From positions 1 through 15,840 of the IMG/VR virus record IMGVR_UViG_2737471850_000008: a DNA stretch of 15,840 bases; one strand, 5' to 3'. The position numbers and the translations under genes were made by a program. Origin of the DNA: a virus. Taxonomy: Duplodnaviria; Heunggongvirae; Uroviricota; Caudoviricetes. Shown here one piece after another: positions 679-15,840 of this stretch. Within the stretch, counting starts at the first letter, position 1, and every line of letters begins with the position of its first letter. Below the pieces are notes generated by a model. It did not search any database, had not been told where the DNA came from, and saw only the letters and a program-made list of their open reading frames with translations.

Positions 679-685
679 AACATTT

Positions 686-705
686 GCGCCCCTGAACAGG
701 GGCGC
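686..705. terminator. GC-rich hairpin (8-bp perfect stem GCGCCCCT/AGGGGCGC, loop GAAC) just downstream of the acyltransferase stop; candidate terminator
   Basis: Perfect inverted repeat read directly at 686-693 and 698-705. There is no immediate U-tract, so terminator function is uncertain. Confidence 0.4.
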
Positions 706-773
706 TATCCCACCACGCTGTTAAAATTTTGTTTCGTCTTACTTAGCATTTTTAAGTTGCCCATCGGAAAAAC

Positions 774-1038
774 GTCACAACCATCACGCCCCACAAAAAA
801 AACCATTAACCATCTGATTATCATGAATAAATGTTGTGATGGTAAAACCATCACAAAACGTAACGTAAACCGTCACACCCTATAAATTCAGCGAGTTATA
901 AAACAGAGTTGTGATGTTTTAAGGCCGTCACACTGTGATGCTCTTGTGATGCTCTTGTGATGGTTTTCAATATATGAATTTACTTATACATATCATATAG
1001 ATAAATGATATTTTTTAAATCTGTGATGTTTGTGACGG
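774..1038. repeat. Iteron-like cluster: 12 copies of heptamer TGTGA(T/C)G or its complement in 265 bp of AT-rich DNA, in both orientations
   Basis: Copies at 774, 782, 835, 848, 871, 910, 926, 934, 945, 956, 1022, 1031. Perfect palindrome TGTGATGG-TAAAA-CCATCACA at 835-855. Tandem 11-bp unit TGTGATGCTCT at 934-962 (one helical turn apart). Confidence 0.55.
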
Positions 1039-1213
1039 TTTTCCGATGCTCCCCCTAAATTTTTGAAAAAATTAGAAGTGGTCAGAAATCACCCTGATTT
1101 GTTGGTGGTTTTGTATATATCTCTGTTAGTGATTTGAGCATTGGTGCAGTACGTTAATGTAGGTATGGCTATAGTTCAGGCTGTGCAAAGTATTTCAGTT
1201 CCGCATCTCACGG

Positions 1214-1738: not shown

Positions 1739-2639
1739 TTTCAACAACAACCGCAAGCGATTTCAGGCGTGGAACACTCAGTTCGCTGGTGATATCACCC
1801 AGTGAAAAAGACAGTGATTCCGTCTGAGCAAATGTCCTGTGGATCTCCCGCCCCAGCTGAGAAAAGGAAAAACGCGAATATGGCCACGTCTTCCTGACGT
1901 CATAATCAGCATTCTCACGAAAAGCACAGCGGATCATGTTCTCCACCCCGTCCTTCAGGGTTTTCCTGTCCTCATCGCTGAAATTGGCCAGATTTTTGAC
2001 ATAAACTGTGACGGACAGATCATGAAGCGTTTCCGGCATGGGATAGCACTGCATATCATCACCGTGGCCGTGATGCCCCTGCGTGTTGATATAGTCATTG
2101 ACGGCATCCACGAACGGCGAAGAAGCCACCCCGCTGTCCAGCAACAGATACGCGTTGGCGGTACCGGGTCCCCTCGGCGCTTCATGTTCAAAGAAAATCC
2201 GGTCAATACTCAGCCCTGCAACGCCGGCAATCATCGACCGGTAAACGGCGTCAGTGTGGTAATTCCCCACCAGATTGAACTGATTGCGGCAGCGTTCGCG
2301 CAGCTCGTCATCACTTTCTTCATCCGCGCCCGGTACGGTCAGCCAGTTTTCTTCGCTGGCCACGTGGCTGATACCGTCAACGGCAACCGGCAGAATGCGG
2401 TAATATCCCGGCGCAAGGTTATATGCGCCCCCGGTGCCGGTGGCTTTTACCGGCAGTAATGCGCAGGCCGTACCGGAAGCGATCACTACATCCTCACTGG
2501 TGGCCAGCTCATACACGCGACCGTTAATGCGCTCTGTCTGGATACTGCCCCAGCCCGGTGTCCCGCTGTGCCGGGATGAACGCGATCTCGTCCATCTGGC
2601 TGTCAAATCCCTGCATTGCCCGTCTGGGCATGTTCGCAA
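1731..2639 (-). CDS. J: P2 gpJ-like baseplate protein; 5' end anomalous (TTG start in ORF track, Arg/Ser-rich first ~35 codons; possibly frameshifted or truncated)
   Basis: Central region ESDDELRERCRNQF resembles recalled P2 gpJ (ESDTDYRLRIQQAF). Size matches gpJ (302 aa). An ATG-initiated 35-codon ORF in another frame (ATG at 2631, MPRRAMQGFDSQMDEIAF...) overlaps the annotated N-terminus. Stop TGA at 1731-1733. Confidence 0.55.
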   Translation of the reverse strand: MRTCPDGQCRDLTARWTRSRSSRHSGTPGWGSIQTERINGRVYELATSEDVVIASGTACALLPVKATGTGGAYNLAPGYYRILPVAVDGISHVASEENWLTVPGADEESDDELRERCRNQFNLVGNYHTDAVYRSMIAGVAGLSIDRIFFEHEAPRGPGTANAYLLLDSGVASSPFVDAVNDYINTQGHHGHGDDMQCYPMPETLHDLSVTVYVKNLANFSDEDRKTLKDGVENMIRCAFRENADYDVRKTWPYSRFSFSQLGREIHRTFAQTESLSFSLGDITSELSVPRLKSLAVVVENE

Positions 2640-2669
2640 TGAGAAAATCGGTTAATGCCGTTAACTGGC

Positions 2670-3122
2670 TCATATCATGGCCACCGTAATGCGTTTCAGC
2701 CCTTTGATGCGGCGTACTGCCAGTGTGGACTCTGCAATCAGGCTGGAGCGGGTTTCGTCACTTTCCTGCCCCGGATGGCTCTCACGGCGACCAACAGACG
2801 CAAATTCGCCCATCAAATCAGCTTTGGCACGTGCATATACCGCTTTGCGATAACGGGCGCACAACAGATTTTCGCCGTCAATTTCCACGCCCGAAACGTC
2901 CGCCGCGCGCTCATGGCCAGCATTGCGATACCTTGCCGCCACACTGACCAGATCATCATTGATTTCGCCGGCTGCAGTCAGCAGTGCCTGGCGGATGGTG
3001 GCCGCATCAATATCGGCCGGAATGGTGCGCTGGGACTGAAAATCTTTCACGCTCAGGTCAGGCCAGAAGCCATCATTCGTCAGAGTGGCATCGTCAAAAT
3101 CAATTGAAGTTCCGCTGAACAT
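2670..3122 (-). CDS. L: P2 gpL-like head completion/stabilisation protein
   Basis: ATG at 3122 preceded by GGAG (SD); the track ORF starts at an upstream GTG (3161). C-terminal pattern ADVSGVEIDGENLLCARYRKAVYARAKADLMGEF resembles recalled gpL. It follows the M gene as in P2. Confidence 0.75.
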   Translation of the reverse strand: MFSGTSIDFDDATLTNDGFWPDLSVKDFQSQRTIPADIDAATIRQALLTAAGEINDDLVSVAARYRNAGHERAADVSGVEIDGENLLCARYRKAVYARAKADLMGEFASVGRRESHPGQESDETRSSLIAESTLAVRRIKGLKRITVAMI

Positions 3123-3215
3123 CCTGTTTCTCCGGAAAAAAGCGGGCTGGCCGGTTTCCACGGGCGATACGCTTATGCGATCCCCTCCACCGCGCCCGCT
3201 TTCGGGTCGGTAGTC

Positions 3216-3407
3216 TTACTCGCCGCGTTTTGCGGCCTGAATCTCACCTTCTTCAAACCACGCATCAGATGCGCGGCCGTCAGCAGTCTGATAGTGGATC
3301 AGATACTGATTGCAGCTGTTGGTGTACTCCGCACGGGCTTTGATATGCCCCTCTTCGCCGCTAATGGAAACTTCAACAACCTGGCCTAACTCATGCTTAA
3401 ACGACAT
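3216..3407 (-). CDS. Hypothetical 63-aa acidic protein inserted between small terminase and head completion genes
   Basis: ATG at 3407 lies 1 nt after the TGA of gene M (TGATATG coupling) and is preceded by GGGAG. No P2 gene occupies this position. No family recognised. Confidence 0.5.
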   Translation of the reverse strand: MSFKHELGQVVEVSISGEEGHIKARAEYTNSCNQYLIHYQTADGRASDAWFEEGEIQAAKRGE

Positions 3408-3408
3408 A

Positions 3409-4122
3409 TCAAACTCCCGTAGACTCTTTTTTCAGCGCCCGCAGACGCGCAGCAATACGCTGCAACATCGTGCCAACACCACATTTAGGGTCGAATCCCT
3501 TCGCCTGCTCCAGCAGTTCCTTAGCCCGGAGCAATACTTCCCTGTCTTCCGTTGCCGCTGCGCGTGGCTCTCCGTTTTCATCGCGTAGCAGGTGCAGACC
3601 GGCAAACTTCAGGTATTTGGCCTTAATGACCTCATACACATTCCAGTGCTGCGTCACGTTTTCCAGCGTACGGCCAAAATACGGCTCCACATCATGCCCC
3701 TGTACGGCTTCCGCTTCCGCCCAGGACAACACCGTATCCGCCACAAACACCGGGAACGTACTGCCGAACGCGGCCGGGGTTTCCTGCCCCCGCTGGATTG
3801 CCACATCCGCCCAGTCCAGCGCCTGGTCAAACTGGCCTGTATCAAACAGCCAGACGACACACCAGGCAAAAACAGGATTCTGTTGCACACTGTCACCTTC
3901 CAGCCAGGATTGCGCGGTTGGCATCCAGCGCGGTAACAGCACATCACGCTTAAATTCCATTCGCTCAGCGCGGCTTTCAATCGCTGCAGCTGCGGCGACA
4001 TCTTTCTCCAGCGCGACAATCTGAATATGCAGGCTGGTTTCCGTGTCCAGAGACTGCTGCTGTCGCAGTAACCGCTCCGCTTCAATTCGTGCGCTGTGGC
4101 GCTGTGCCGGTGACAGTTGCAT
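3409..4122 (-). CDS. M: P2 gpM-like terminase small (endonuclease) subunit
   Basis: 237 aa; ATG with AAGGGGGAT SD; positioned between N and L as in P2; sequence character consistent with the gpM family (from memory). Confidence 0.8.
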   Translation of the reverse strand: MQLSPAQRHSARIEAERLLRQQQSLDTETSLHIQIVALEKDVAAAAAIESRAERMEFKRDVLLPRWMPTAQSWLEGDSVQQNPVFAWCVVWLFDTGQFDQALDWADVAIQRGQETPAAFGSTFPVFVADTVLSWAEAEAVQGHDVEPYFGRTLENVTQHWNVYEVIKAKYLKFAGLHLLRDENGEPRAAATEDREVLLRAKELLEQAKGFDPKCGVGTMLQRIAARLRALKKESTGV

Positions 4123-4132
4123 TAAATCCCCC

Positions 4133-5161
4133 TTACTCGCCTGCCGGAGGCGCGACAGGTGCCCCGATAGCTACCGCACTTTCATCAAACGCGGCGTACA
4201 GTTCCGGATACTCAACCGCATAACCTTCGTTACGCAGGTATTTGTTTTCGTACTGTTTACGGTCTTCCACAAACTCCGCTTTACGCTGACGCGTGCCGCG
4301 CTGGGTGTAGATGTGCAGGTTTGGCAGTGTCGTAACAATCATGCGTTTGCCTGGCATAAACGGCGGTACGTAAGCCGTGCGGCCGGCGATGCTGTCAGAC
4401 AGCAGTTGCGCGGCGATCTTCTCCGTGGGTTTGTCTGCTTTCTGATACAGACGGAACGACTCCGCCGCGACCAGATCAGCGCCGACAAGAACCACCAGGC
4501 GTGGATCATTACGGTACTGTGCCGGGATTTTGGCGTTGATAAGGTCGGAGGCCATTGCATCCAGCGACACGTAATCGCCTTTCCCGTCACCGTCAAGCAC
4601 CACCGCATCAGTGATGATCTGCTGGCCGTCCTTCCACTCTTTGACGATCTGATGCCAGCCCTTGTTCACATCCTCGCCGTTCGGGTTGGTTTCCGCGTTC
4701 GTGGTCTCGGCCACTTTGGTACCGTTAAAGCCGATACGCAGCATATCCAGCGCAAACGCCTGATTGGTGAACTCCTGAACACGCTGGAAAAACTCGTTTT
4801 CATCGCCGGCGTTCGCCCAGACAGAAAGCAACTGCCAGGTGAGTGCGGCGCATGAGTCGGTCTCGACCAGACTGTAATCATTACCACTCACGCCCACTTT
4901 CTTACGGAAGCGGCCATCCAGTACACGCCCGGTATACAGGCCAGAGCTGCCAACCGGAACCACCTGCCCCTGCAGCTGATCGACATCGGCAACGGTGATC
5001 AGATTCAGGAAATCAGACTGCTCCATCAGCGCATTGCGCAGCTGGGTTTCTTTGGGGTCGGTGAGTGCAAACCAGCGTTCGCTGTCGGTCGCCCCGTAGG
5101 ATTCACGCAGCCCGGTGTGATACTGAAGCAGAAACTCACGGGCTTTCGCATTTAATTGCAT
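4133..5161 (-). CDS. N: P2 gpN-like major capsid protein
   Basis: 342 aa; ATG with AAGGA SD; C-terminal region (DPRLVVLVGADL...YVPPFMPGK...) resembles recalled P2 N (DPDLVVIVGRQLL...VPYFPAD); lies in O-N-M order. Confidence 0.85.
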   Translation of the reverse strand: MQLNAKAREFLLQYHTGLRESYGATDSERWFALTDPKETQLRNALMEQSDFLNLITVADVDQLQGQVVPVGSSGLYTGRVLDGRFRKKVGVSGNDYSLVETDSCAALTWQLLSVWANAGDENEFFQRVQEFTNQAFALDMLRIGFNGTKVAETTNAETNPNGEDVNKGWHQIVKEWKDGQQIITDAVVLDGDGKGDYVSLDAMASDLINAKIPAQYRNDPRLVVLVGADLVAAESFRLYQKADKPTEKIAAQLLSDSIAGRTAYVPPFMPGKRMIVTTLPNLHIYTQRGTRQRKAEFVEDRKQYENKYLRNEGYAVEYPELYAAFDESAVAIGAPVAPPAGE

Positions 5162-5195
5162 ATTCTTTTTCCTTAAAGAAAAGTAGTGTTATCCC

Positions 5196-6035
5196 TTACA
5201 GGAAATTGAAGCCTTTTTTGCCCTTGCTGAATTTCTTGTCCGGCAGTTGAGTAACTTTGTTATTCAGCTTGCTGAAGTTTTTCACCAGCTCCGGCAGGTT
5301 CCCCACCAGACGCGCAAAATCTTCGGTGTCCACTACTTCCTTCACGGTGTCCACATCGTCCTGCACATCAGATACCGCTTCTTCCGCCTCACCCAGACGG
5401 GTTTCAATAGCAGATACGCGCTTATCAATGGCATCCAGCGCTTCAGCCAGCGCCTGTAAGGCATCAGACTGTGAAGGTTCCTGCTCCGGGGTCTGCTCCG
5501 GTTCTTCGATACTGAAAAAATGGCGCCAGCCCTTTTTCGCTGTCTTTGACATTCCCTTTTCCTTTTTAAATTCCCTGACTTCATCAAACGCCAGCGGCTT
5601 GTATGGTCCGATGCGTTTTCCCCTGGTGCGGCTGAAACGTAACCGTGTGGTGCTTACCCCGGCCGGACTGTCAGTAATGGCCAGTCCCTCAAGATAGGTT
5701 TTCCCGGTATTTCTGAAATTGCCGTCCGGTGTAAACTCCGGTGATAAAAATAAAAGCTGACCGTCTGCATTTGCCTGTAGCAATGAAATCGCCGGACAGA
5801 GGCGGGCATATAAACGAAGAATACCTTCATCATCCCGCTCGGCTTTTACTTCCAGCACCTCCCCCATATTCCCGAAATTACGGGAATGTTCCGGCCATAA
5901 CAGCGCGGTATACAAAGAGGGGTCATATAATTCAGCGGCATCAAGCAACCATTGTTCTTCAATAAATCGCTTATCAACCGTTTCACCCGCAGTGGCGATA
6001 CAAATCCAGTTTGTTGCCAGTTGTGAACCTGACAT
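5196..6035 (-). CDS. O: P2 gpO-like capsid scaffolding protein/protease
   Basis: ATG at 6035 (MSGSQLATNW...) preceded by GGAGG; the track ORF extends to 6095. N-terminal WICIATAGETVDKRFI...GEVLEVKAE resembles recalled gpO (FFRIGVEGDTCDGRVI...GDVAELKAE). Acidic C-terminal half typical of scaffolds. Confidence 0.8.
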   Translation of the reverse strand: MSGSQLATNWICIATAGETVDKRFIEEQWLLDAAELYDPSLYTALLWPEHSRNFGNMGEVLEVKAERDDEGILRLYARLCPAISLLQANADGQLLFLSPEFTPDGNFRNTGKTYLEGLAITDSPAGVSTTRLRFSRTRGKRIGPYKPLAFDEVREFKKEKGMSKTAKKGWRHFFSIEEPEQTPEQEPSQSDALQALAEALDAIDKRVSAIETRLGEAEEAVSDVQDDVDTVKEVVDTEDFARLVGNLPELVKNFSKLNNKVTQLPDKKFSKGKKGFNFL

Positions 6036-6163
6036 ATTGCCTCCGTTCATGCTGCGGTTTTCAGTATCGCCAATAAAATTAACCGCCGCATTCACTTCAT
6101 TTCGGATATAGGCTATTAGCCGAACACATCAGAAATAAAGCGGGATTTAATATACAAACGCCC
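6036..6163. promoter_or_regulatory. Divergent intergenic region between O and P; expected location of late promoters
   Basis: Position between divergently transcribed head operons, as for P2 PO/PP. No canonical TGT-N12-ACA Ogr box was found by eye, so promoter elements are not defined. Confidence 0.35.
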
Positions 6164-7960
6164 GTGCATAATGTGTGCATGGCTAAATATTCAGAAGAAT
6201 TAAAAGGCGTTGCGCGGGCGCTTTATTTAAAACGCTATACCCCGCAGGAAATTGCCAGCGAACTTAATCTGCCTAACAGACGCATTGTCTATTACTGGGC
6301 GGAGAAATATTGCTGGGCGGAATTACTCAGTCATGAATCCACCGAAGATGCATTAAACCGTCGCATTCAGTCACTGACATTACGTGAAGGGAAATCGGAG
6401 CTGGAGCTGCGGGAGCTGGACAGTCTCGTTTCTCACCTGGTGAAACTACGTGCACAGCACAATAAGCATCAGGAAAAGCTGGCAGAAATTAAACACAGTG
6501 AAAATGATGCGCCGGCGCGTCAGTCCGGTGGCGACGAAAAGCCCCGGAAACGTGGCAAGTACAAAAAGAACGACATCAGCGGACTGACACAGGAAGATTT
6601 TGACCGGTTCGCGCTGGAGCACCTTTTCGGTTACCAGAAACACCTTCGCGCTAATCTTCATCAGCAAATCAGGAACATCCTGAAAAGCCGCCAGATTGGT
6701 GCAACCTGGTATTTCTCAATAGAAGCCTTTGAGAATGCGGTCATGACAGGCGATCCGCAAATCTTCCTGTCCGCATCAAAGGCTCAGGCGGAAGTATTCC
6801 GCAGCTATATCGTCAACATTGCGGAGCAGTATTTCGGCGTGGAGCTGACGGGAAACCCCATCCGCCTCTCCAACGGCGCGGAGATGCGATTCCTGTCCAC
6901 CAACAAGAACACCGCCCAGTCATACAGCGGCCATCTGTACTGCGATGAATATTTCTGGGTACCCAACTTTGCAAAATTAAACGAAGTGGCCAGCGCGATG
7001 GCCACACACGACAAATGGCGAACCACCTACTTTTCCACCCCCAGCAGCAAAACGCACCAGGCGTACCCGTTCTGGACTGGTGAAGAATGGAAGCGCGGTG
7101 ACAAAAAACGCGCGCGCGTACAATTTCCCACGGAGAAGGAGCTGCGCGACGGTGGACGGTTATGTCCTGATGGGCAGTGGCGCTACATCATCACAATGGA
7201 AGACGCGATCGCAGGCGGGTTTAATCTCGCCAGCATCGGGAAGCTGCGCAACCGCTACAACCGCGACACTTTCAACATGCTGTATATGTGCGTGTTCGTG
7301 GACAGCAAGGACAGCGTATTTTCGTTCTCTCACGTAGAACGCTGCTGTGTAGATCCGGATATCTGGGAGGATCATGACGAAAACCTGCCCCGGCCGTTCG
7401 GCAACCGTGAAGTGTGGGCGGGTTATGACCCGGCTCGCAGCGGAGACACCTCCACCTTCGTGATCATCGCGCCGCCGATAGTGGCCGGCGAAAAATTTCG
7501 GGTACTGCGTGTATTCCACTGGCAGGGGATGAACTGGAAGTGGCAGGCGGCACAGATTAAGAAGCTGTTTGGCCAGTACAACATGACCTACATCGGCATT
7601 GATATCACTGGACTGGGTAGCGGTGTCTTTGAAGACGTTCAGCACTTTGCCATGCGTCAGGCAGTGGCGATCCGCTACGGCGTCGAGACCAAAAATCGTC
7701 TGGTGATGAAGATGATCGACGTTATCGAAGACGGCCGCGTGGAATGGGATAAGGAGAAGACCGAAATCGCCGCCAGCTTTATGACCATCCGCCGTACGTC
7801 CACGGCCAGCGGCAACGCAATGACTTTCGTCGCCGATCGCACAGCAGAAACAGGACACGCAGACAGTTTCTGGGCTATCGCCCATGCCATTGACAACGAG
7901 CCATTAAACTTTGAAAACCAGCGAAAATCACGCTGGGGTAACTTAGGGAAAGCAGCATGA
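6164..7960 (+). CDS. P: P2 gpP-like terminase large (ATPase) subunit
   Basis: About 593-598 aa; the track start is GTG at 6164 and the first ATG is at 6179 (MAKYSEELKG). Size and position match P2 P. Stop overlaps the Q start (ATGA at 7957-7960). Confidence 0.85.
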   Translation: MHNVCMAKYSEELKGVARALYLKRYTPQEIASELNLPNRRIVYYWAEKYCWAELLSHESTEDALNRRIQSLTLREGKSELELRELDSLVSHLVKLRAQHNKHQEKLAEIKHSENDAPARQSGGDEKPRKRGKYKKNDISGLTQEDFDRFALEHLFGYQKHLRANLHQQIRNILKSRQIGATWYFSIEAFENAVMTGDPQIFLSASKAQAEVFRSYIVNIAEQYFGVELTGNPIRLSNGAEMRFLSTNKNTAQSYSGHLYCDEYFWVPNFAKLNEVASAMATHDKWRTTYFSTPSSKTHQAYPFWTGEEWKRGDKKRARVQFPTEKELRDGGRLCPDGQWRYIITMEDAIAGGFNLASIGKLRNRYNRDTFNMLYMCVFVDSKDSVFSFSHVERCCVDPDIWEDHDENLPRPFGNREVWAGYDPARSGDTSTFVIIAPPIVAGEKFRVLRVFHWQGMNWKWQAAQIKKLFGQYNMTYIGIDITGLGSGVFEDVQHFAMRQAVAIRYGVETKNRLVMKMIDVIEDGRVEWDKEKTEIAASFMTIRRTSTASGNAMTFVADRTAETGHADSFWAIAHAIDNEPLNFENQRKSRWGNLGKAA

Positions 7961-8976
7961 AAAAACGGAAATACAGGGAACGCCGCACCGCCAGCAAGCC
8001 GCGCCATATGAGCCTTATTACCCTGGGTAAACCGGAACCCATTCTGACGACCGGCACAAACTACACAGACGTCTGGTATGACAATGAAGCGGAACACTGG
8101 ACGCTCCCGATTGACCGGCTGGCGCTGGCGCAACTGGTGAACCTGAACGCGCAGCACGGCGGTGTGCTGTATGCCCGTCGCAATATGGTGACGGCAAACT
8201 ATAAAGACGGCGGACTGACGCATGAACAGCTTGGTGCAGCCGTGTTCGACTGGCTGACCTTCGGTGATGTGGCCATTCTGAAAGTGCGTAACGGCTGGGG
8301 GGATGTGGTGGCACTGTACCCGCTGCCGGCACTCTATACCCGCCAGCGTAAGACCGGGGAGTTTGTGGTACTGCAGCAGGGTGAACCGATGATTTATCCG
8401 CCTGAAGATATTATTTTTCTCAGGCAGTACGATCCGCAACAGGCGATTTATGGTCTGCCGGATTATATCAGCGGTATCCATTCTGCCCTGCTTAACGGTG
8501 AGGCAACAATTTTTCGTCGGCGTTACTACCATAACGGCGGACACACAGGTGGCATGATCTACTGTAACGACCCAAATATGACTGATGAAGTGGAAGAAGA
8601 AATTATTCAGAAGCTGGAGCAGTCAAAGGGGATCGGGAACTTCAGCACCATGTTTGTGAACATCCCCAAAGGCGATCCGGACGGCATCAAATTTATCCCG
8701 ATTGGGGATATCAGCGCCAAAGATGAGTTTCAGAACATCAAGAGCATCAGCGCCCAGGACGTACTGACCGCGCATCGATTCCCGGCAGGACTGGCGGGGA
8801 TTATCCCGACGAACGGCGCAGTAATGGGAGATGTTGAGAAAGCGTCCAAAACCTACCGCAAAGCAGAAATTTTGCCCATTCAGCGCATGTTTACCGCCGC
8901 AGTGGAACAGGAAAGTGATGTACCGCCCCACCTGTACCTTAATTTCCTGAAAGACAGTGAGCTGGAAGGTGATTAA
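7957..8976 (+). CDS. Q: P2 gpQ-like portal protein
   Basis: 339 aa versus about 344 aa for P2 Q; translationally coupled to P; family identification from memory. Confidence 0.85.
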   Translation: MKKRKYRERRTASKPRHMSLITLGKPEPILTTGTNYTDVWYDNEAEHWTLPIDRLALAQLVNLNAQHGGVLYARRNMVTANYKDGGLTHEQLGAAVFDWLTFGDVAILKVRNGWGDVVALYPLPALYTRQRKTGEFVVLQQGEPMIYPPEDIIFLRQYDPQQAIYGLPDYISGIHSALLNGEATIFRRRYYHNGGHTGGMIYCNDPNMTDEVEEEIIQKLEQSKGIGNFSTMFVNIPKGDPDGIKFIPIGDISAKDEFQNIKSISAQDVLTAHRFPAGLAGIIPTNGAVMGDVEKASKTYRKAEILPIQRMFTAAVEQESDVPPHLYLNFLKDSELEGD

Positions 8977-9029
8977 TGTTCGCAAAAAGGCTAAAATATC
9001 ATCGTTTTCCAACTTCCGGAGCGATGGAT

Positions 9030-9305
9030 ATGCGGGTAATGAAGGTTTACTGTCCGGTATGTGAGGCAAGGGCTGTTATCAAAAAAACAGCCCGAAAACA
9101 CAAGGAACTGTCGGATTTATATTGCGCGTGTACCGATGTTGAATGTGGTCACACTTTTGTGATGAATATGACATTCTCACATACCATCAGCCCCAGCGCC
9201 AAATCCAGCGATGCGTTGATCGCCACTATCTGTAACAGCCTTGATATCCAGCAAAAGCAGCTGATGTTAAAGTTTCTGAGTCAGGACGGCACTGCTGCCG
9301 CATAG
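9030..9305 (+). CDS. ogr: Ogr/Delta-family zinc-finger late transcription activator, with a C-terminal extension relative to P2 Ogr
   Basis: CPVC...(22 aa)...CACTDVEC four-cysteine arrangement, as in Ogr/Delta. GGAG 9 nt upstream of the ATG at 9030; alternative starts at 9024 and 9042; the track ORF begins at 8976. Confidence 0.75.
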   Translation: MRVMKVYCPVCEARAVIKKTARKHKELSDLYCACTDVECGHTFVMNMTFSHTISPSAKSSDALIATICNSLDIQQKQLMLKFLSQDGTAAA

Positions 9306-9306
9306 A

Positions 9307-9337
9307 AAAAAGCACCGCTACCGGTGCTTTTATTTTC
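9307..9337 (+). terminator. Rho-independent terminator after ogr
   Basis: Stem AGCACCG / CGGTGCT (9311-9317 and 9322-9328), loop CTAC, followed by TTTTATTTT; A-run upstream. Confidence 0.75.
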
Positions 9338-9383
9338 TGAGATGTAACAGATTCCCATCTATCAACGTCGATGAATGACCAAG

Positions 9384-9444
9384 TGATTAATAGTCCCCCC
9401 CTCCTAAACATGATATTATCTTTCCAAATTTTGGGAGGCATCTT
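9384..9444 (+). promoter_or_regulatory. Putative promoter and RBS of the glycosyltransferase moron, containing a C7 homopolymer
   Basis: TATTAT (9414-9419) as candidate -10; TTAATA/TGATTA about 21-24 bp upstream as candidate -35; C7 run at 9395-9401 lies between them; strong SD GGGAGG at 9432-9437. Confidence 0.3.
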
Positions 9445-10164
9445 ATGTTAATAGTCTCAGTTCTTAAATGTAGTAAAGAGTTTACCCCTAAACACGCCCA
9501 ATGGCTTCATCGTCAGTTCAAAGATATTCCATCTATATGTTTAACCGATGCAGATAATATTCCTGGAGTTAACACAACCCCTTTGCTTTATAACTGGCCG
9601 GGATGGTGGTCTAAAATTGAACTATTTAATCCTAATCACCCAGTCCTTGGAGACCAAGATTTACTCTATTTTGACGTAGATGTTGTGGTCACGGGAGATA
9701 TTCATATTTTCGAAGGTGCGAAGAAATTTACAATGCTTCGGGAGTTTAACCATGCCTCAAGAGTAAACTCATCAATAATGATGATTCCGGCGTCGATTAA
9801 AAAGACGATTTGGGAACAATTCATTATTGATCCTGAGAAAATTATGCGCAATTGTCAGACTGAAGACAAATGGGGTGATCAGGGATTTCTCGGTAGCATC
9901 ATAAAACCAGCCCTATGGCAGGATATCATTCCTGGCTCAATTGTTAGTTATAAATGTGACATCGCCACCCCCTCGATGATTGGCTTCAATGCAAATTTAG
10001 CCTCTGAGGCTGCGACAGGGAAAGTCCCTGATAATGTGGCGGTTGTTTGCTTTCATGGCAGTCCACGCCCCTGGCGTACTGGTTTTGATTGGGTTCCTTC
10101 GTTTTCCCTGCGGGATACTCTGTACGGTAAATTAAAGAACTTTAAAATAAGAATGAAGCAATAA
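9445..10164 (+). CDS. GT8-family-like (glycogenin/LgtC/RfaJ-type, DxD) glycosyltransferase; AT-rich moron
   Basis: Motifs in GT8 order and spacing: DxD (LLYFDVDVVV), NSS (cf. FNSGV), WGDQGFL (cf. GGDQGILN), CFHGSPRPW (cf. HFxGxxKPW). AT-rich compared with the flanking phage genes. Strong SD and ATG. Confidence 0.6.
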   Translation: MLIVSVLKCSKEFTPKHAQWLHRQFKDIPSICLTDADNIPGVNTTPLLYNWPGWWSKIELFNPNHPVLGDQDLLYFDVDVVVTGDIHIFEGAKKFTMLREFNHASRVNSSIMMIPASIKKTIWEQFIIDPEKIMRNCQTEDKWGDQGFLGSIIKPALWQDIIPGSIVSYKCDIATPSMIGFNANLASEAATGKVPDNVAVVCFHGSPRPWRTGFDWVPSFSLRDTLYGKLKNFKIRMKQ

Positions 10165-10201
10165 AGATAACGCCCCTATTGCTTCAATGTTCGCTCCTTC
10201 C

Positions 10202-10219
10202 CCTAACAATAAAGTTAGG
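10202..10219. terminator. Hairpin CCTAAC-AATAAA-GTTAGG between the convergent glycosyltransferase and primase-helicase genes; possible bidirectional terminator
   Basis: 6-bp perfect inverted repeat read directly; AT-rich stem, so weak. Confidence 0.3.
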
Positions 10220-10232
10220 CACTAGTGAACCG

Positions 10233-12890
10233 TTACTTTTCCCGGCCAAATATCCAGCAGCGGAATGTTTCCGGCATCCGTTGCATATCCCCTTTACCAC
10301 GATTATGGCGCTCACTTACCGCGCTGCGCGTGGTGCTTTGTCTGATAAACCGGCGCTCATTGCCGTTTTTAAGCAGCTTTTTAATTTCCGTTAACGTGAA
10401 CGGAATACGCTGCCGGTGTGCTGCGGCGACCTCTTCCATGTGATTGAAATTAACCGCGATTTCATTTTCATCTGATGAATGATTGATGCCATAAGGTGCC
10501 AGTTCATCCAAGTAATCAAACAGCTCCCAGAACTCCTGCACCAGAGGATGATCCTTTTTAAGTGCCTGACAACGTTCAACGGCCAGCGCGGTGATGGCTT
10601 CACGCGTTTTTTCTATACGTTCAACCGGCACCGGTACAACAAGTGCAAGCGCCTCCAGCAAGCCCACAAGCTGCGCGTGATTCTTTGCAATACGGATATG
10701 GCGAATACTGCTATTAGACTCCAGCTCATTCCTAGCTCGCTCGTACCCCCTGCCGAACGTCTGCATGATTTCTTTTTCGCGCATGGTGGCCAGTAATGTG
10801 AATCCGGATACCTGGCTAACGGGGAGTTGTTCAAGTCGTTCTGCAGCGTGGCGCGTCTGAATGGACTGGCCGCGCTTGTCGGTATAGATGTGGATGATAC
10901 GCTCCAGAAACGCCTTGCTGCCGTCTGTGTCGGCATTTTGCGCTATCACAATACTTCCCCTGAACGGCGGCTCATACGTCTCGTTATTGTTCGATTTGAT
11001 ACCCACGGCGCGGGAGGCACGACCGTTATACAGTGATTTCAGCTCGTCCCAGTCAAAAGCGCGTTGCTTGGCGTTATCGGTAGTACGGTCGCCCTCAATC
11101 AGCACAACCGGCAGATTACCGACCTGGGCGAAGTTACGGCCACGCGCGGCGGCGGTAGATTTAGATGGGTCAAACCCTTCGTATTCCTCACGGCCGGCGA
11201 GCTTCCAGAGAAATTCTATCAGCGTGGATTTACCTGTCCCCGGCTCGCCCACGATTTCCAGAAACGGAAATGACTTGTCACGCTCGCGGATTTGTTCGGC
11301 AAACAGCGACCCCAGCCAGAACGCCAGCGCCACATACCCTTTTTCACCAAATGCCGTCCAGATATCGTCTACCCAACCCGTAGTAAACTCGTTCAGCTTC
11401 GGATTCAGATCCAGCGCCGGCGTGAGGCTCAGGCTCTTAACGCTGGCACTGTTGATTTCGAAGTAATCCTCGTCGTTCATCTCATACAGCCGGCCATCGC
11501 AAACGGCCACGCGGTTAAACAACCAGGCGGCATAATCCTTGTTATAGCCGATGAAATTCTGCGTCTTTACCTCTTTGATTTCAGGGAGGCGCATCTGGAT
11601 GAACTTATCCAGCTGTTTGGTGCTGCCTGTGTACACCGCCCCTTTGGCGATGTGCAGCAGACGCTTTTTGAACTCGGCGGAGCTGGTGAGCTGATTAGCC
11701 GTGAAAGTATCTTTCACGGCTGGCCGGTTAGGCATACTGACTTTCACGTAATACCAGGACTCGTCCGTAGGTTCAGACCGCTGAAAGTAAAGCGGCGTCA
11801 GCCAGCAGTTAGCTATTTCGGTCACGCCGCCTGACTCTTTAACCGCCCGTTCTTTGGCCTCCCACTCCATCACCACTTCGGTACCGGTATTGGTGATGCG
11901 CTCATAGGCTCGCATATACCTGTCCAGATCCAGCTCAAACCAGTACATGCGGGAGTTATGCTCAAAGTAGAACGAGTGCCACTCGTTATGCTGATGCATG
12001 AGCAGCGCTTTCTCAGTCGGGCTTTTTGCCAGAAGGAGATCGCCATAGTAGCGATAATTTTTAATGTCCGACTTACTGAACCGGTTACGTAACAACAGGT
12101 CATTCCAGTCCAGCGATGCCGATGATTTCACCGGCTGCGCGGCACGAGTTTTCCATCCTGCAGCATCACTACGGGCAGCGAACGCCAGTGTGTGCTTTGT
12201 GCCGGCTTTATCGCCGTCAAACGCCCATACAAGACGTGGACGTGGTTTTTCACCCAGTTCTTTGGCCAGCGTATCCAGTGCGGCCAGCGGATAGTTGTTA
12301 CTGCTCAGTGTGGCAACTGCAGGTAACCCTACCTGGCACAGACTCAGCGCGTTGAAGATTCCCTCAGTGATCCAGATTTCGTTCACTTCCTGCAGGTTGA
12401 TAAAGGGAGGAACCCACCAGTGACCGACATAGCTTCCCCTGATGTTGGCTTTCTGCTTACCGAAGCGCTGCGGCTGGTCAATGATGCGCTCCCATGTTGC
12501 ACCGCATGACAGCGAAAATCTGACCGTTGCCGACCCCATGCCATCTTTCACGAATGCACCCTGGGTAAAACAGCCTTTTAATGGCTCAGTCTCCAGCCCT
12601 CTGGCCTCGCGCAGATACGCCTCAGCTACTGCATGGGGGTTATCTTCTGTGGTCTGGTAACGTTTTGACCAGTCTTCAAAGATATCCGGATACAGCTCTT
12701 TCACGACAATCTGATGTGCGCAGTTATTTTCACGGCCACATTTCAGAATCCAGGGCTTTTCTATGCTGGTAAATAATTCGCGCTTACGACAGGCAGGGCA
12801 AACGCCCTGCTGCAAATACTTATCCCGCTCTTTAAATTCAAAGTCCCGAACAAGACGGCGCACAACGTCCTGTTGTATCGTTTCGTTCAT
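10233..12890 (-). CDS. Primase-helicase of the P4 alpha type (zinc-binding N-terminus, Toprim primase, P-loop NTPase)
   Basis: ATG at 12890 (MNETIQQ); the track ORF starts at TTG 12926. CPACRK...(16 aa)...CGRENNC zinc motif; Toprim-like ITEG and FDGDKAG; Walker A GEPGTGKS and Walker B-like VVLIEGD. Confidence 0.8.
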   Translation of the reverse strand: MNETIQQDVVRRLVRDFEFKERDKYLQQGVCPACRKRELFTSIEKPWILKCGRENNCAHQIVVKELYPDIFEDWSKRYQTTEDNPHAVAEAYLREARGLETEPLKGCFTQGAFVKDGMGSATVRFSLSCGATWERIIDQPQRFGKQKANIRGSYVGHWWVPPFINLQEVNEIWITEGIFNALSLCQVGLPAVATLSSNNYPLAALDTLAKELGEKPRPRLVWAFDGDKAGTKHTLAFAARSDAAGWKTRAAQPVKSSASLDWNDLLLRNRFSKSDIKNYRYYGDLLLAKSPTEKALLMHQHNEWHSFYFEHNSRMYWFELDLDRYMRAYERITNTGTEVVMEWEAKERAVKESGGVTEIANCWLTPLYFQRSEPTDESWYYVKVSMPNRPAVKDTFTANQLTSSAEFKKRLLHIAKGAVYTGSTKQLDKFIQMRLPEIKEVKTQNFIGYNKDYAAWLFNRVAVCDGRLYEMNDEDYFEINSASVKSLSLTPALDLNPKLNEFTTGWVDDIWTAFGEKGYVALAFWLGSLFAEQIRERDKSFPFLEIVGEPGTGKSTLIEFLWKLAGREEYEGFDPSKSTAAARGRNFAQVGNLPVVLIEGDRTTDNAKQRAFDWDELKSLYNGRASRAVGIKSNNNETYEPPFRGSIVIAQNADTDGSKAFLERIIHIYTDKRGQSIQTRHAAERLEQLPVSQVSGFTLLATMREKEIMQTFGRGYERARNELESNSSIRHIRIAKNHAQLVGLLEALALVVPVPVERIEKTREAITALAVERCQALKKDHPLVQEFWELFDYLDELAPYGINHSSDENEIAVNFNHMEEVAAAHRQRIPFTLTEIKKLLKNGNERRFIRQSTTRSAVSERHNRGKGDMQRMPETFRCWIFGREK

Positions 12891-12929
12891 AAATAATCCA
12901 GATGTGAAATAATGGGTAAAAGGCAAAAA

Positions 12930-13148
12930 CTATATTCTGTACTGCTTGTTATATCGCTCATGTGTCATTAGTTCCCAGCTTCTGCCCTTATCCTTACTCA
13001 GTAATCGCCAGTGATAAGAAACATGAACAGAGAAATAATGTTTTGGCTTAATAACCTGATATACCTTTTTGCCGTTGTAATATTCTGTCAGCACTGAAAA
13101 TGCCTTGTGAATGACACTTTCACTTGCATGAGAGGTCACTGTAAGCAT
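12930..13148 (-). CDS. Hypothetical 72-aa protein
   Basis: ORF between the exonuclease and primase genes with ATG 2 nt after the exonuclease stop; weak SD; AT-rich; no recognised motifs. Could instead be non-coding regulatory DNA. Confidence 0.35.
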   Translation of the reverse strand: MLTVTSHASESVIHKAFSVLTEYYNGKKVYQVIKPKHYFSVHVSYHWRLLSKDKGRSWELMTHERYNKQYRI

Positions 13149-13150
13149 CG

Positions 13151-13720
13151 TTATTTCACACTGGCTATTTTTACAAGATACATCCAGACATAAGAAACAA
13201 CTTTAGCCTGATGAATGGCATCATATAAAGCGTGATGTTTAACACCATCAAACTTAATAATATTACGAACATTCAGCCCAAGTGTTTTTGACAGTTCAAC
13301 AACCGTTCTTACATCACGGTCATTCCAGTAGTACCAAAGTGGATCGGCAAACCCGCATTTCTCTGATGCATTACGTAAAATAACATTGTCGAACGCTGCA
13401 CTATTCCCCCATACCTGTACTTTAGATGGGTCAGAATGCTCAGTAATAAAAGCTTCCAGATTAGCTAACGTCAGAGGCAAGTCCAGACAATCGTCATTAA
13501 GCAGCTCGCTACGCGCTTCGGCATCCTGACGCATCCACCATAATACGGTTTCTGACCCCATAGTGAGACCGTGGCCTACACAGCTGCCCAGGCTGACACG
13601 TTGATAAAACTGTTCACCCATTTCGCCAGTTTCAGGGTCAAAGAATACAGCACCGATAGAAGCAATCGCAGAAGTCGGTTTATTATCCATTGTTTCAAGG
13701 TCAATCATTAAATGTTTCAT
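13151..13720 (-). CDS. DEDDh-family (DnaQ/RNase T-like) 3'-5' exonuclease
   Basis: Exo I MIDLETMD (D-x-E), Exo II WGNSAAFD, Exo III HHALYDAIH (H-x4-D). ATG with AAGGAA SD. AT-rich. Confidence 0.8.
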   Translation of the reverse strand: MKHLMIDLETMDNKPTSAIASIGAVFFDPETGEMGEQFYQRVSLGSCVGHGLTMGSETVLWWMRQDAEARSELLNDDCLDLPLTLANLEAFITEHSDPSKVQVWGNSAAFDNVILRNASEKCGFADPLWYYWNDRDVRTVVELSKTLGLNVRNIIKFDGVKHHALYDAIHQAKVVSYVWMYLVKIASVK

Positions 13721-13729
13721 ATCGGTTCC

Positions 13730-14065
13730 TTAACGTTGGGAAGCTGCAACAGATTTAAGATGCGAGTTATTACTTTTTAACGCTGTGGTAGCCAGCGACA
13801 TAAGACCGGAAATGTTATTTTCAGTTGGTATATTTCCGCCAAATACCATAAGCGTGATTTTGTGCAGTTCTTCAAAATCATCACTATCATTATTAAAGCG
13901 AGCAGTGGAGGTTATACCCTCAAGGCATTTTGCAAGCTGAATGTTTAATTCCATTAACTGCAAGCCATCGCTATGTACAGAGAATGTTTCTTTATCAATG
14001 GTTTTTGCCTGAGCGTGATAGTTTTGCAACAGACTACGAATCAGCGTGGCATATTTAGTCTTCAT
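13730..14065 (-). CDS. Hypothetical protein (about 111 aa) in the early operon
   Basis: ATG at 14065 with GGGGAT SD (track start is TTG at 14077); 26 bp downstream of cox; AT-rich; no recognised domain. Confidence 0.5.
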   Translation of the reverse strand: MKTKYATLIRSLLQNYHAQAKTIDKETFSVHSDGLQLMELNIQLAKCLEGITSTARFNNDSDDFEELHKITLMVFGGNIPTENNISGLMSLATTALKSNNSHLKSVAASQR

Positions 14066-14091
14066 GATAATCCCCAATAATATTTAGTTTA

Positions 14092-14373
14092 CTAACGAGC
14101 ACTTTTATCTTTCGTGAATAAACGGTTCTTCCAGTCATGCCATTCAGGCGGGGCAATTTGAGCCAAATGAATGGCATAAGCATCCCATTCCCCCCGATGG
14201 ATATAGATTTCCCCACCTTTTTTTGATGGATTTAGAGGGTCTTTCATGCGGATTACCGGCAGTTTTCCAGCCGTGGCCATTTTGCGAATTGCAGCAGGCG
14301 TTTTGCCTATATATTCGGCAAAAAGCTCAGGGGTCACCAACTCTGAAAGCGCCTTTTCTGCTGGTTCCTTCAT
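14092..14373 (-). CDS. cox: P2 Cox-like excisionase / transcriptional regulator
   Basis: 93 aa; segment ELFAEYIGKTPAAIRKMATAGKLPVIRMKDP resembles recalled P2 Cox (QEFAKLIGKSTGAVRRMIDKGKLPVIDMTDP). Divergent from C. SD AAGGAT. Confidence 0.8.
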   Translation of the reverse strand: MKEPAEKALSELVTPELFAEYIGKTPAAIRKMATAGKLPVIRMKDPLNPSKKGGEIYIHRGEWDAYAIHLAQIAPPEWHDWKNRLFTKDKSAR

Positions 14374-14481
14374 CTGTGGTATCCTTCGTTAGTTTGGGTT
14401 CCTAGGGCGCTTTAAGTCGTTCTAGGGTTCTTTTGTCAAGGTTCTTTTGTAAGAACCAACAATAGTTGCGATACAAGAACC
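14374..14481. promoter_or_regulatory. cox-C switch region with candidate operator repeats (face-to-face Pe/Pc promoters expected by analogy with P2)
   Basis: Direct repeats TTC(C)TAGGG at 14399-14407 and 14420-14427, about 21 bp apart. Tandem GGTTCTTTTGT at 14426-14436 and 14440-14450. Inverted GGTTCTT...AAGAACC at 14440-14457, and another AAGAACC at 14475-14481. Confidence 0.6.
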
Positions 14482-14781
14482 ATGTCAAGAAATTATGCGG
14501 AGAAACTCCGGCAGATCCGGAAAGCTGAAGGGTTAACTCAAAAAGATTTTTCAGAGCTTACTGGGGTAGCTCTTGGAACAATAAAAAAGTACGAAACTGG
14601 CCATCAGCCAGCTCGTGCAGAAGTCTTAGAAAGTGTTATAGAGGTACATATGTTTGAAAAATATACACTCTGGTTAATGACAGATAAGACGGCACCAATT
14701 GCGGGGCAGGTGTCCCCGTCTCTCTCCCCTGATGGGCAAGACAACATAACATCATCCCGTTCCACCCGGAAAATTGGCTAA
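14482..14781 (+). CDS. C: P2 C-like immunity repressor
   Basis: 99 aa (same as P2 C). LTQKDFSELTGVALGTIKKYETG helix-turn-helix and KYTLWLMTDKTAPIAGQVSP closely resemble recalled P2 C (KYTLWFMTNQIAPESGQIAP). Confidence 0.85.
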   Translation: MSRNYAEKLRQIRKAEGLTQKDFSELTGVALGTIKKYETGHQPARAEVLESVIEVHMFEKYTLWLMTDKTAPIAGQVSPSLSPDGQDNITSSRSTRKIG

Positions 14782-14847
14782 ACATCTGGTTTTTCTATGC
14801 GTTAGCGCAAAATTTACATAATGATTCATACATCGGAGGGCTTCGCT

Positions 14848-15840
14848 ATGTCGATTAAGAAGCTTGATGATGGTCGTTTTGAAGTGGACGTTAGACCGCG
14901 CGGAACCTCAGGAAGAAGGATTCGACGCAAATTTGACAGAAAGGCGGAAGCACAGGCATACGAGCGGTATGTACTGACAAACTTTCACGATAAAGAATGG
15001 CAGGATAAACCCGCAGACAGGAGGCTTGTATCCGAGTTAATTTCTTTATGGTGGAGCTACCATGGAAAGAATCACAACTATGGTGACTCATATAAAAAGC
15101 GTTTGGAAAAAATCAACCGAGAAATGGCGGAACCCAGAGTGTACGAGCTTACCCGCAACTTTCTGATGAAATATCGTGCAGAACGACTTCATAGTGGAGT
15201 ATCTGCTGGCACGGTAAACAGGGATTTCTGTTCCATGTCCAGCATGTTCAGTTTGCTGATAGATATGGAAGAATTTCATCACGAAAACCCGTTTCGCGCC
15301 GTGAAGAAGTTACGTCTGGAAAACACAGAAATGTCATTTCTGTCCGAAGAAGAGATCCACCATTTGCTGAATGCCCTTACAGGGGATGATCGCAGAGTTG
15401 TCGTTCTTTGCCTGAATACAGGAGCACGATGGGGTGAAGCCAGTAATCTTAAAGCTGAAAACGTGATAAGTAACCGTGTGACCTTTGTTAAGACCAAAAC
15501 CGGCCCAGCTCGTACTGTTCCGATATCGAAGGAAATCGCGGACTACATCCTTACACGCAAATCGGGGAAATTGTTCGATACCAACTATGAGCGAGTTCGC
15601 GATGTTCTTCGTAAGATTAAGCCAGACTTGCCGAAAGGTCAGGCACTGCATGTTTTACGCCATACCTTCGCAACACATTTCATGATCAACGGCGGGAATA
15701 TCATCACGCTACAGCGTATTTTGGGTCATACAACAATCGAGCAAACAATGACATATGCTCACTTCGCCCCAGATTATCTGACTGATGCCATACGATTTAA
15801 CCCTATGCGTGGGAGTGTCCACATAATGTCCACCGACTAG
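14848..15840 (+). CDS. int: P2-type tyrosine integrase
   Basis: ATG at 14848 with GGAGGG SD (track ORF starts at 14821). MSIKKLDDGRFEVDVRPRGTSGRRIRRKFDRK closely resembles recalled P2 Int (MAIKKLDDGRYEVDIRP...RIRRKFDKK). C-terminal HVLRHTFA...H...Y catalytic-type residues. Stop TAG at the window end. Confidence 0.9.
   Translation: MSIKKLDDGRFEVDVRPRGTSGRRIRRKFDRKAEAQAYERYVLTNFHDKEWQDKPADRRLVSELISLWWSYHGKNHNYGDSYKKRLEKINREMAEPRVYELTRNFLMKYRAERLHSGVSAGTVNRDFCSMSSMFSLLIDMEEFHHENPFRAVKKLRLENTEMSFLSEEEIHHLLNALTGDDRRVVVLCLNTGARWGEASNLKAENVISNRVTFVKTKTGPARTVPISKEIADYILTRKSGKLFDTNYERVRDVLRKIKPDLPKGQALHVLRHTFATHFMINGGNIITLQRILGHTTIEQTMTYAHFAPDYLTDAIRFNPMRGSVHIMSTD

Follow-up and report, generated by a model that had tools for sequence, protein, structure and literature searches.

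A predicted primase-helicase of the phiCTX type in the early operon of a decayed P2-like prophage of Escherichia coli

Introduction

How does a P2-like element initiate replication when the gene for the rolling-circle initiator is missing from its early operon? The question is raised by positions 1 to 15,840 of the IMG/VR record IMGVR_UViG_2737471850_000008 (Caudoviricetes), the whole stretch of DNA analysed here, which we call the window. On its minus strand, the early operon ends in a gene for an 885-residue protein (10233..12890, stop codon included), the primase-helicase gene of this report. In P2, the same slot at the end of the early operon, on the ogr/Q side, is held by gpA, an HUH-type rolling-circle nickase (PF05840) with the same role of initiator, which according to the annotation nicks an origin inside its own gene and needs gpB and the host DnaB. 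The first-pass annotation of the window described the 885-residue product as a zinc-finger/Toprim/P-loop protein of the P4-alpha type, and took its combination with P2 immunity and head genes for a mosaic of satellite-like habit with an origin unlike that of P2.

Here, we compare the gene, its product and its surroundings with those of other P2-like phages. We consider it highly probable that the product of the gene initiates replication in an Evevirus-like prophage of the P2 family at the raiA-pheL site, and that the gene represents a phiCTX-type module, the standard alternative in a substantial minority of tailed P2 relatives.

Results

The gene lies in a minus-strand open reading frame (ORF) that can start at 12926 (TTG) or 12890 (ATG) and has its stop codon at 10233-10235. 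The ATG version gives 885 residues and equals the RefSeq call WP_032292416.1, a 'toprim domain-containing protein' from an E. coli chromosome with a 99.9% match to the window. The protein is identical at 884 of 885 positions to the copy in an intact prophage, and the gene in the window is therefore intact. Just past its stop codon, a terminator-like hairpin with a 14-bp stem and a T run (10154..10186, minus strand; terminator scan and inverted-repeat map) closes the early operon, which thus ends in the 885-residue gene as first described. Pfam found no PF05840 signal in the product and BLASTP against P2 gpA gave a best E of 2.0; P2 gpA itself, used as a control, matches PF05840 at 1.8e-124. 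Neither Pfam nor PHROG revealed a gpA or gpB homologue among the other ORFs of the operon. The lack of a gpA-type nickase and of gpB, pointed out in the first-pass annotation, is thereby confirmed, and the domain search for HUH/rolling-circle motifs likewise returned no match.

The protein matches phrog_1139 ('DNA primase') over its full length (E=0, 1239 bits, residues 3-884 on profile positions 2-890 of 895), and tblastn finds full-length homologues in 40 phage records. Identity is 95% to the 'DNA primase' of Escherichia phage ESSI2_ev239, 46-47% to ORF47 of Ralstonia phage RSY1 and its relatives, 40-41% to orf37 of phiCTX and to other Pseudomonas phages, 40% to Smp131 and 29% to phi3. Wherever an opened record states a lineage, the phage belongs to the Peduoviridae and has its head and tail genes complete. 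ESSI2_ev239, phiCTX, RSY1, Smp131, phi3 and UFJF_PfPro combine full head and tail sets with the primase gene and have no gene annotated as gpA or Rep, and Dobby is another complete tailed member of the Peduoviridae with the gene at the same place. Annotated copies are 850-901 residues long and located in the cox-side early operon, in phi3 in the order int-C-cox-primase. The gene is thus the PHROG 1139 or phiCTX-type replication module, already known from public annotation and classified phages (Citexvirus, Evevirus, Arsyunavirus, Simpcentumvirus and Phitrevirus), with which it agrees in homology, length, position and the absence of gpA and gpB. There is no essential difference; the copy in the window lies in a prophage without tail and lysis genes, and the neighbouring ParE-like and glycosyltransferase-like ORFs are lineage-specific.

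Phage ESSI2_ev129 has its structural genes in the order of ESSI2_ev239 but carries a gpA-type gene in the primase-helicase slot, next to ogr-Q. Since one slot holds a gpA-type gene in ESSI2_ev129 and a primase-helicase in ESSI2_ev239 and the window, it is a point of exchange for replication modules. Homologues of gpA occur in 385 phage records as against 40 for the primase type, which makes the latter a minority, yet an established alternative. At 90% identity, the family falls into more than 2200 clusters and, at 50% identity with E<1e-30, into 380. In the searchable literature, its genes are mentioned only as 'DnaG-type primase' or 'DNA primase-like' (PMC5694545; PMC3931495). One database entry stands apart: the 'DNA primase' of Smp131 (25406-28085) diverges from all relatives past residue ~790 and is found by tblastn in two pieces, which points to a frameshift or an error of sequencing in the database record close to the C-terminal domain.

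In 12 complete E. coli genomes, the interval between raiA/acyltransferase and pheL holds a 28.4-kb prophage, to which the window aligns as three collinear segments with 99.9-100% identity. Window positions 1-1303, 1300-2544 and 2543-15840 correspond to 3001-4303, 9957-11201 and 18062-31358 of the intact locus used for comparison (L002). Two deletions account for the gaps, one of 5.65 kb (L002 4304-9956) and one of 6.86 kb (L002 11202-18061), with junctions at window 1300-1303 (4-bp overlap) and 2543-2544 (2-bp overlap); contigs from one genome per species gave no match to the second junction, a result that is uninformative. The first deletion has removed tail-fibre and distal baseplate/tail genes. 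The second runs from inside baseplate gene J to just before the head-completion gene, with loss of the tape measure, lysis, tube and sheath genes, and truncated I and J genes remain at 1214-2639. The portal, both terminase subunits, scaffold, capsid and head-completion genes are kept, and no tail or lysis gene is missing from the intact copies. At the DNA level, the intact element shares 91% identity with ESSI2_ev239 (Peduoviridae, Evevirus), a phage with the full complement of head, tail and lysis genes. At the same locus, one single, larger deletion in E. coli PK5 has joined a tail gene to the capsid gene, and E. coli HZ13 has an IS5-associated deletion and an integrase pseudogene. Such heterogeneous lesions across strains indicate prophage decay and not a stereotyped satellite gene content.

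In the protein, Pfam detects Toprim_3 (E 2.5e-11) and Toprim_2 (E 7e-10) at residues 172-268 and, below threshold, a match to the P-loop NTPase DUF5906 at residues 546-654 (22.8 bits, cut-off 27.6). We aligned 53 diverse representatives of the family, 28-63% identical. Twelve residues are invariant in all 53 (C31, C34, C51, C57, D261, G548, G553, K554, E599, N652, R664 and R733), and E176 and D225 are conserved in at least 90%. The gene can be read as five segments, all on the minus strand. Codons 29-57 (12720..12806) form a zinc ribbon with the four invariant cysteines C31, C34, C51 and C57; Pfam Zn_ribbon_16 is matched by 9 of the 53 relatives. Codons 172-268 (12087..12377) form a Toprim domain as in primases of the DnaG/T7 type, with E176, D225-x-D227 and D261-W-N. 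Codons ~306-500 (11391..11975, approximate boundaries) would be the beta-rich N-terminal tier of a helicase, and codons ~505-700 (10791..11378) an AAA+ motor with Walker A (GEPGTGKS, 548-555) and Walker B (LIEGD, 597-601), followed by N652 and R664. According to the secondary structure of the model, codons ~705-885 (10236..10778) comprise a helical lid and a C-terminal alpha/beta domain (~805-885). K554, E599, N652 and R664 thus represent Walker A and B together with a polar residue and an arginine where sensor 1 and the arginine finger are expected. The cysteines, the Toprim match and the conserved Walker motifs bear out the zinc finger/Toprim/P-loop description. An OLD-type nuclease was considered and rejected, as OLD has the ATPase N-terminal and Toprim C-terminal, whereas the N-terminal half of the present protein superposes on DnaG and T7 primase.

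The AlphaFold2 model (mean predicted local distance difference test, pLDDT, 87) was used for structural comparison. Foldseek retrieved SCCmec Cch (E 2.5e-15) and SaPIbov1 Rep (E 7e-11), and the best matches among the viral models of BFVD were proteins with Toprim and DUF927. The fold-comparison score is 22.5 for Cch, with 433 residues aligned, followed by SaPIbov1 Rep (17.4), the RNA-polymerase domain of DnaG (14.2), a T7 primase fragment (14.0), SaPI5 PriRep and vaccinia D5 (11.6 each) and an archaeal MCM homologue (11.2). The family profile found solely the DnaG Toprim region among PDB sequences (E 0.007). Cch and the SaPIbov1-type Rep are MCM-like helicases of superfamily 6 (SF6), and SaPI5 PriRep, Rep1 and Cch2 belong to superfamily 3 (SF3; PMC9371898). 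The predicted model has the three tiers of the former: an N-terminal tier, an AAA+ motor and a C-terminal domain in the position of their DNA-binding domain. By analogy with Cch and SaPI Rep, we propose that the C-terminal alpha/beta domain (~805-885) is a winged-helix origin-binding domain. The protein would then be a fusion of an N-terminal zinc-ribbon and Toprim primase of the DnaG/T7 type with a C-terminal three-tier AAA+ helicase of the Cch/SaPIbov1 Rep fold. The Cch-like fold predicted for the helicase half appears undescribed in the searchable literature and is of modest interest.

Public annotation as 'DNA primase' or 'toprim domain-containing protein' could be taken to mean that the protein is a primase only, in which case the ATPase region would be a non-helicase accessory such as a loader or regulator, the host DnaB would unwind the DNA and another factor, from phage or host, would initiate. 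Toprim is indeed the sole domain above threshold in the sequence models, and the helicase activity is a prediction. However, the Walker A and B residues and those in the sensor 1 and arginine finger positions are invariant in the 53 relatives, the operon has neither a DnaB loader (gpB) nor another initiator, and iteron arrays, described below, co-occur with the gene. We regard a primase-only protein as unlikely.

The layout of the protein is also that of the P4 alpha protein, which combines a zinc ribbon, a Toprim primase, an AAA+/P-loop motor and a C-terminal region in a single polypeptide. P4 alpha matches Zn_Ribbon_Prim, Toprim_3, D5_N, DUF5906, Pox_D5 and TIGR01613, whereas the window protein matches Toprim only above threshold. 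D5_N and TIGR01613 are not found in it. Zn_Ribbon_Prim (PF08273), matched by P4 alpha at 1.9e-18, gives no match at E<=0.01, the four-cysteine ribbon of the window protein being a different one, and Pox_D5 (3.6e-16 in P4 alpha) is matched neither by the window protein nor by any of the 53 relatives. BLASTP against P4 alpha yields two weak collinear patches (E 0.002-0.003), one in Toprim (33% over 99 residues) and one around Walker A (35% over 63 residues). A full-length hhalign comparison of the family with the single P4 alpha sequence recovered the Toprim region only, at 43% probability, and was hence repeated on separated halves. The Toprim half then aligned with the N-terminal half of P4 alpha over 105 columns (probability 95.7%, E 1e-8), and the match between the helicase halves was limited to a 49-column segment around Walker A, so that only the ~105 Toprim columns can be aligned between the family and P4 alpha. 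The P4 profile used is shallow, because the homologues among the listed top 120 are all at least 81% and nearly all at least 85% identical. With P4 alpha as query, tblastn does not reach the window-protein family. The window protein thus resembles P4 alpha in its layout and, at profile level, in its primase half, and its mode of action is probably comparable; both are expected to act on iteron-type origins, P4 having type-1 repeats in ori and crr. The helicase half is from a different AAA+ lineage: that of P4 alpha is D5-like SF3, while that of the window protein is nearer Cch in fold. The designation as P4-alpha type accordingly holds for the layout and the homologous Toprim half and fails for the rest.

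These data bear directly on the proposal that a D5-like SF3 primase-helicase of the P4-alpha type was acquired from a satellite. The shared layout, the BLASTP patches, the Toprim profile probability, the weak DUF5906 matches of 10 of the 53 relatives, a 51%-identical homologue in a 12.5-kb satellite-like E. coli island and the absence of most tail and lysis genes from the window would all agree with it. Against it stand the missing D5_N, Pox_D5, Zn_Ribbon_Prim and TIGR01613 matches, the short alignment of the helicase halves, a fold much nearer Cch and SaPIbov1 Rep than D5 or SaPI5 PriRep, the failure of P4 alpha to retrieve the family, and the finding that complete tailed phages are the nearest relatives. 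Two deletions, which leave truncated J and I genes, are all that separates the window from intact prophages, the deletions in other strains are different ones, and Pfam and PHROG found no psu-, sid- or epsilon-like genes in the window. A primase-helicase at this position proved to be standard among ordinary tailed P2 relatives, and with that the satellite interpretation loses its support: the identical slot in ordinary tailed P2-like phages carries this gene, so a satellite lifestyle is not indicated, and the loss of the tail is explained by the two deletions. The family distribution largely refutes an origin from a P4-like satellite, which we consider very improbable. The homologue in the island shows at the same time that the family is common to phages and satellite-like elements and not exclusive to complete phages.

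An initiator unlike gpA implies an origin unlike the P2 ori, as the first-pass annotation had reasoned, and a plausible candidate is present. No convincing iterons or tandem repeats were found in or beside the gene (8900-15000); the array surfaced in a k-mer scan of the whole window with a finder that, as a control, recovered the known P4 ori and crr. At 751..1059, k-mer scan and repeat maps show ~12 copies of TTGTGATGGTTT in two orientations (copies at 769-1039; 12 when mismatches are allowed). The motif TGTGAYGNT occurs 11 times in the window, 10 of these in 771-1039, with 1.1 expected and none of 200 shuffles reaching 11. Inverted doublets with 9-bp spacing lie at the outer ends (769/778 on the minus strand, 1021/1030 on the plus strand), a triplet at 933/944/955 is phased at 11 bp and followed by an AT-rich block (965-1020), and a 37-nt inverted repeat (751-787/1023-1059) frames the whole. 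The array occupies a non-coding stretch of ~0.5 kb, or ~1 kb in the intact prophage, on which the acyltransferase gene and the tail operon converge; attL is more than 1 kb away from the array. In staphylococcal islands, SaPI Rep and Cch bind iterons through the C-terminal winged helix and load themselves at an AT-rich centre, for which two hexamers have been proposed (PMC9371898). Because it has the same layout, with iterons on both sides of an AT-rich centre, 751-1059 is likely the replication origin, as judged from its sequence.

Arrays of like design are present in seven of eight elements with the family (the window and six more) and in none of three gpA-type phages: a non-coding array is absent from P2 (whole genome), HP1 (first 12 kb) and ESSI2_ev129. 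In phi3, 15 copies of CCGGAACA (7402-7713) begin 74 bp past the primase stop codon. In phiCTX, AAGGTAATTT is repeated at 35105-35373 of the record, annotated as 'R3 repeats'; in Smp131, AAGGTAAC at 33052-33324; in Halomonas phage 4908, AAAGGTAA at 189-461; in UFJF_PfPro, TCTGACAG at 813-1080; and the 12.5-kb E. coli island has a symmetric array of 12 copies of GCGGTTACAA (13942-14218). The motif differs in most elements and is of the AAGGTAA type in three. Outer inverted doublets are 252-302 bp apart in the five elements that have them at both ends; in Halomonas phage 4908 and UFJF_PfPro, where just one end carries a doublet, the span is ~265-270 bp. In mononucleotide shuffles of five sequences (RSY1, the Citrobacter locus, the E. 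coli island, the intact prophage and ESSI2_ev129), no 7-mer exceeded 5 copies within 350 bp, as compared to 5-13 exact copies in the real arrays. A conserved iteron-origin architecture of this kind appears undescribed in the searchable literature and is of modest interest. ESSI2_ev239 has, distinct from its CATCACA array (28397-28637), six copies of GTCCACA directly downstream of int (26742-26959), which are probably Int arm-type sites of attP.

Upstream of the primase-helicase gene, the early operon is preceded by a sigma-70-like site facing cox and the primase operon (TTGACA-18-TATTGT, 14459..14488, minus strand; 10/12 in a consensus scan), the position of which is equivalent to that of P2 Pe between C and cox in the annotated P2 record and which may serve as the early promoter. 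Two direct copies of GGTTCTTTTGT, 14 bp apart, are found in the cox-C intergenic region (14426..14450; repeat map). They are likely repressor operators by analogy with P2, where, per annotation, C binds two direct repeats at the equivalent place. The promoter-like site is followed, all on the minus strand, by cox (14092-14373), a 115-aa ORF (13730-14077), a gene for an Rv2179c-like 3'-5' exonuclease (13151-13720), each as judged from Pfam and PHROG, a 72-aa ParE-like ORF (12930-13148; Pfam ParE_like 1.3e-16, PHROG 1525), the primase-helicase gene and the terminator. From cox to the ParE-like ORF, the order is shared with ESSI2_ev239 and a Citrobacter prophage. The ParE-like ORF is a 'ParE family toxin-like protein' in some RefSeq records, is unannotated in STK78-E and has no evident antitoxin-like partner. 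Its candidacy as a conserved partner of the primase-helicase was rejected, since the ORFs at the same position in phiCTX, Smp131, RSY1, UFJF_PfPro, phi3 and the E. coli island have no Pfam match to it; the corresponding Halomonas ORF is Ogr-like.

Convergent with the primase-helicase gene, and between it and ogr/Q, lies a 239-aa ORF (9445-10164, plus strand; G+C ~0.42) that matches PHROG 1962, 'glycosyltransferase' (moron). In this place, two small unrelated genes are found in ESSI2_ev239 and a 376-aa ORF in the Citrobacter relative. The slot between the replication gene and the portal gene is a hotspot for accessory and defence genes in P2-like phages (PMC13586616). A second cargo gene is found at the other end of the window, where 103-678 (plus strand; G+C 0.37) is the 3' part of an acyltransferase gene. 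It is assigned to the phage, not the host, because the circular map of ESSI2_ev239 has an O-acetyltransferase between attP/int and the iteron array, and it is likely a serotype-converting moron.

The island with the 51%-identical homologue is located between gcd and hpt in E. coli GCA_011890865.2 (L013 5593-18107). Its 12.5 kb also encode a P4-type integrase, an excisionase-like regulator, a repressor-like ORF, a second integrase, a 60-aa Ogr/Delta-like protein, a PemK toxin and a 423-aa P2-type major head protein with a 118-aa N-terminal extension; portal, terminase and tail genes are absent. Among 5426 complete E. coli genomes, 40 contain 80% or more of it. The island has the look of a satellite with a capsid protein of its own.

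Discussion

As a consequence of the exchange at the end of the early operon, the phages with the phiCTX-type gene may have a mode of replication of their own. From the gene, its motifs and predicted fold, its distribution and synteny, and the co-occurrence of iterons, we infer primase and helicase activities, origin binding and the following scheme. Upon derepression of the early promoter, the C-terminal domain of the protein would recognise the phage-specific iterons (769-1039). Hexamers would load themselves on either side of the AT-rich block and melt it, and the helicase would unwind in the 3'-5' direction, with priming by its own Toprim domain and synthesis by a host polymerase, resulting in theta-type replication. 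Neither a rolling-circle nick by gpA nor gpB-mediated loading of DnaB would be required, and gpB would be dispensable because DnaB is not needed. By a narrow preference, we favour the view that the phiCTX-type protein is an uncharacterised fusion of a DnaG-type primase with an MCM-like self-loading initiator, acting on a conserved iteron-doublet origin that is shared by Peduoviridae and the 12.5-kb islands. If so, the window holds both the initiator (10233-12890) and its origin (769-1039).

Several observations weigh against a self-sufficient fusion initiator acting on this array. The second aspartate of the Toprim DxD motif, present in the window protein (D225-G-D227, ~12210-12218), is G, N or E in many family members, in which E176, D225 and D261 are kept, and family-wide primase activity is therefore not guaranteed. 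The relative placement of the domains in the model is uncertain, the predicted template modelling score (pTM) being only 0.64. Pfam DUF927, the family of Cch, has no match in the window protein and is matched by 1 of the 53 relatives (1.5e-4), so that the link to Cch is one of fold and not of sequence. No biochemical or genetic data on any family member were found in the searchable literature. The candidate origin is ~9 kb from the gene in the window and ~4.6 kb from it on the circular map of ESSI2_ev239, past int, attP and the acetyltransferase. RSY1 has no array with exact 6- or 7-mers. In phiCTX and Smp131, finally, the arrays are within a few hundred bp of cos, and a packaging role is possible for those two.

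The last point leads to a different reading of the repeats, namely that the array at 769-1039 is a packaging site (cos-proximal, for terminase or IHF) or a recombination site and that the true origin is elsewhere, for example inside or beside the gene. Consistent with this, the distance to cos is ~200-450 bp in phiCTX and Smp131, IHF sites are annotated inside the phiCTX array, and the SaPI origin is situated directly past rep (PMC9371898), not kilobases away. In phi3, however, the array comes immediately after the stop codon of the primase gene, with the portal gene ~3 kb away, and in the E. coli island it lies 0.3 kb past the gene pair. Phages of the gpA type with homologous terminases have no such arrays, and ESSI2_ev239 has a separate array, that of GTCCACA, which fits Int arm sites. 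In the window, the array is flanked by two convergent gene ends at a distance from attL, and there is no P2-type cos sequence: the P2 cos 19-mer has no match within 3 mismatches, and cos could not be placed. A packaging or recombination site is possible but rather doubtful, and we retain the array as the candidate origin.

The fusion initiator proposed here can be set beside several other known systems. SCCmec Cch (5DGK) and SaPIbov1 Rep (8TCH) are self-loading MCM-like helicases of staphylococcal islands with ~12% sequence identity to it; they have no fused Toprim primase, and their origins directly follow the gene, as opposed to a distance from gene to array of 0.07 to several kb in the family of the window protein. 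T7 gp4 and Twinkle also join a helicase to a Toprim primase, but theirs is a RecA-type (DnaB-like) helicase of superfamily 4, whereas the helicase half of the window protein is AAA+, with matches to Cch, MCM and D5. From P2 gpA it differs in having no similarity of sequence or domains, and the window has no homologue of gpB.

In conclusion, the protein in the place of gpA belongs to a type recognisable for decades among P2 relatives of the phiCTX kind, and the exact gene is present in RefSeq and in a phage that has an ICTV classification. Software that recognises P2-like prophages through a GpA profile will rate those of the primase type as incomplete; many P2-like prophages are said to 'lack' the primase in a recent survey (PMC13586616). 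A tail-less P2-like region should be compared with intact relatives before it is named a satellite. The predicted Cch-like helicase fold and the conserved layout of the candidate iteron origin could open an experimentally easy entry to a second mode of replication in P2-like phages and islands.

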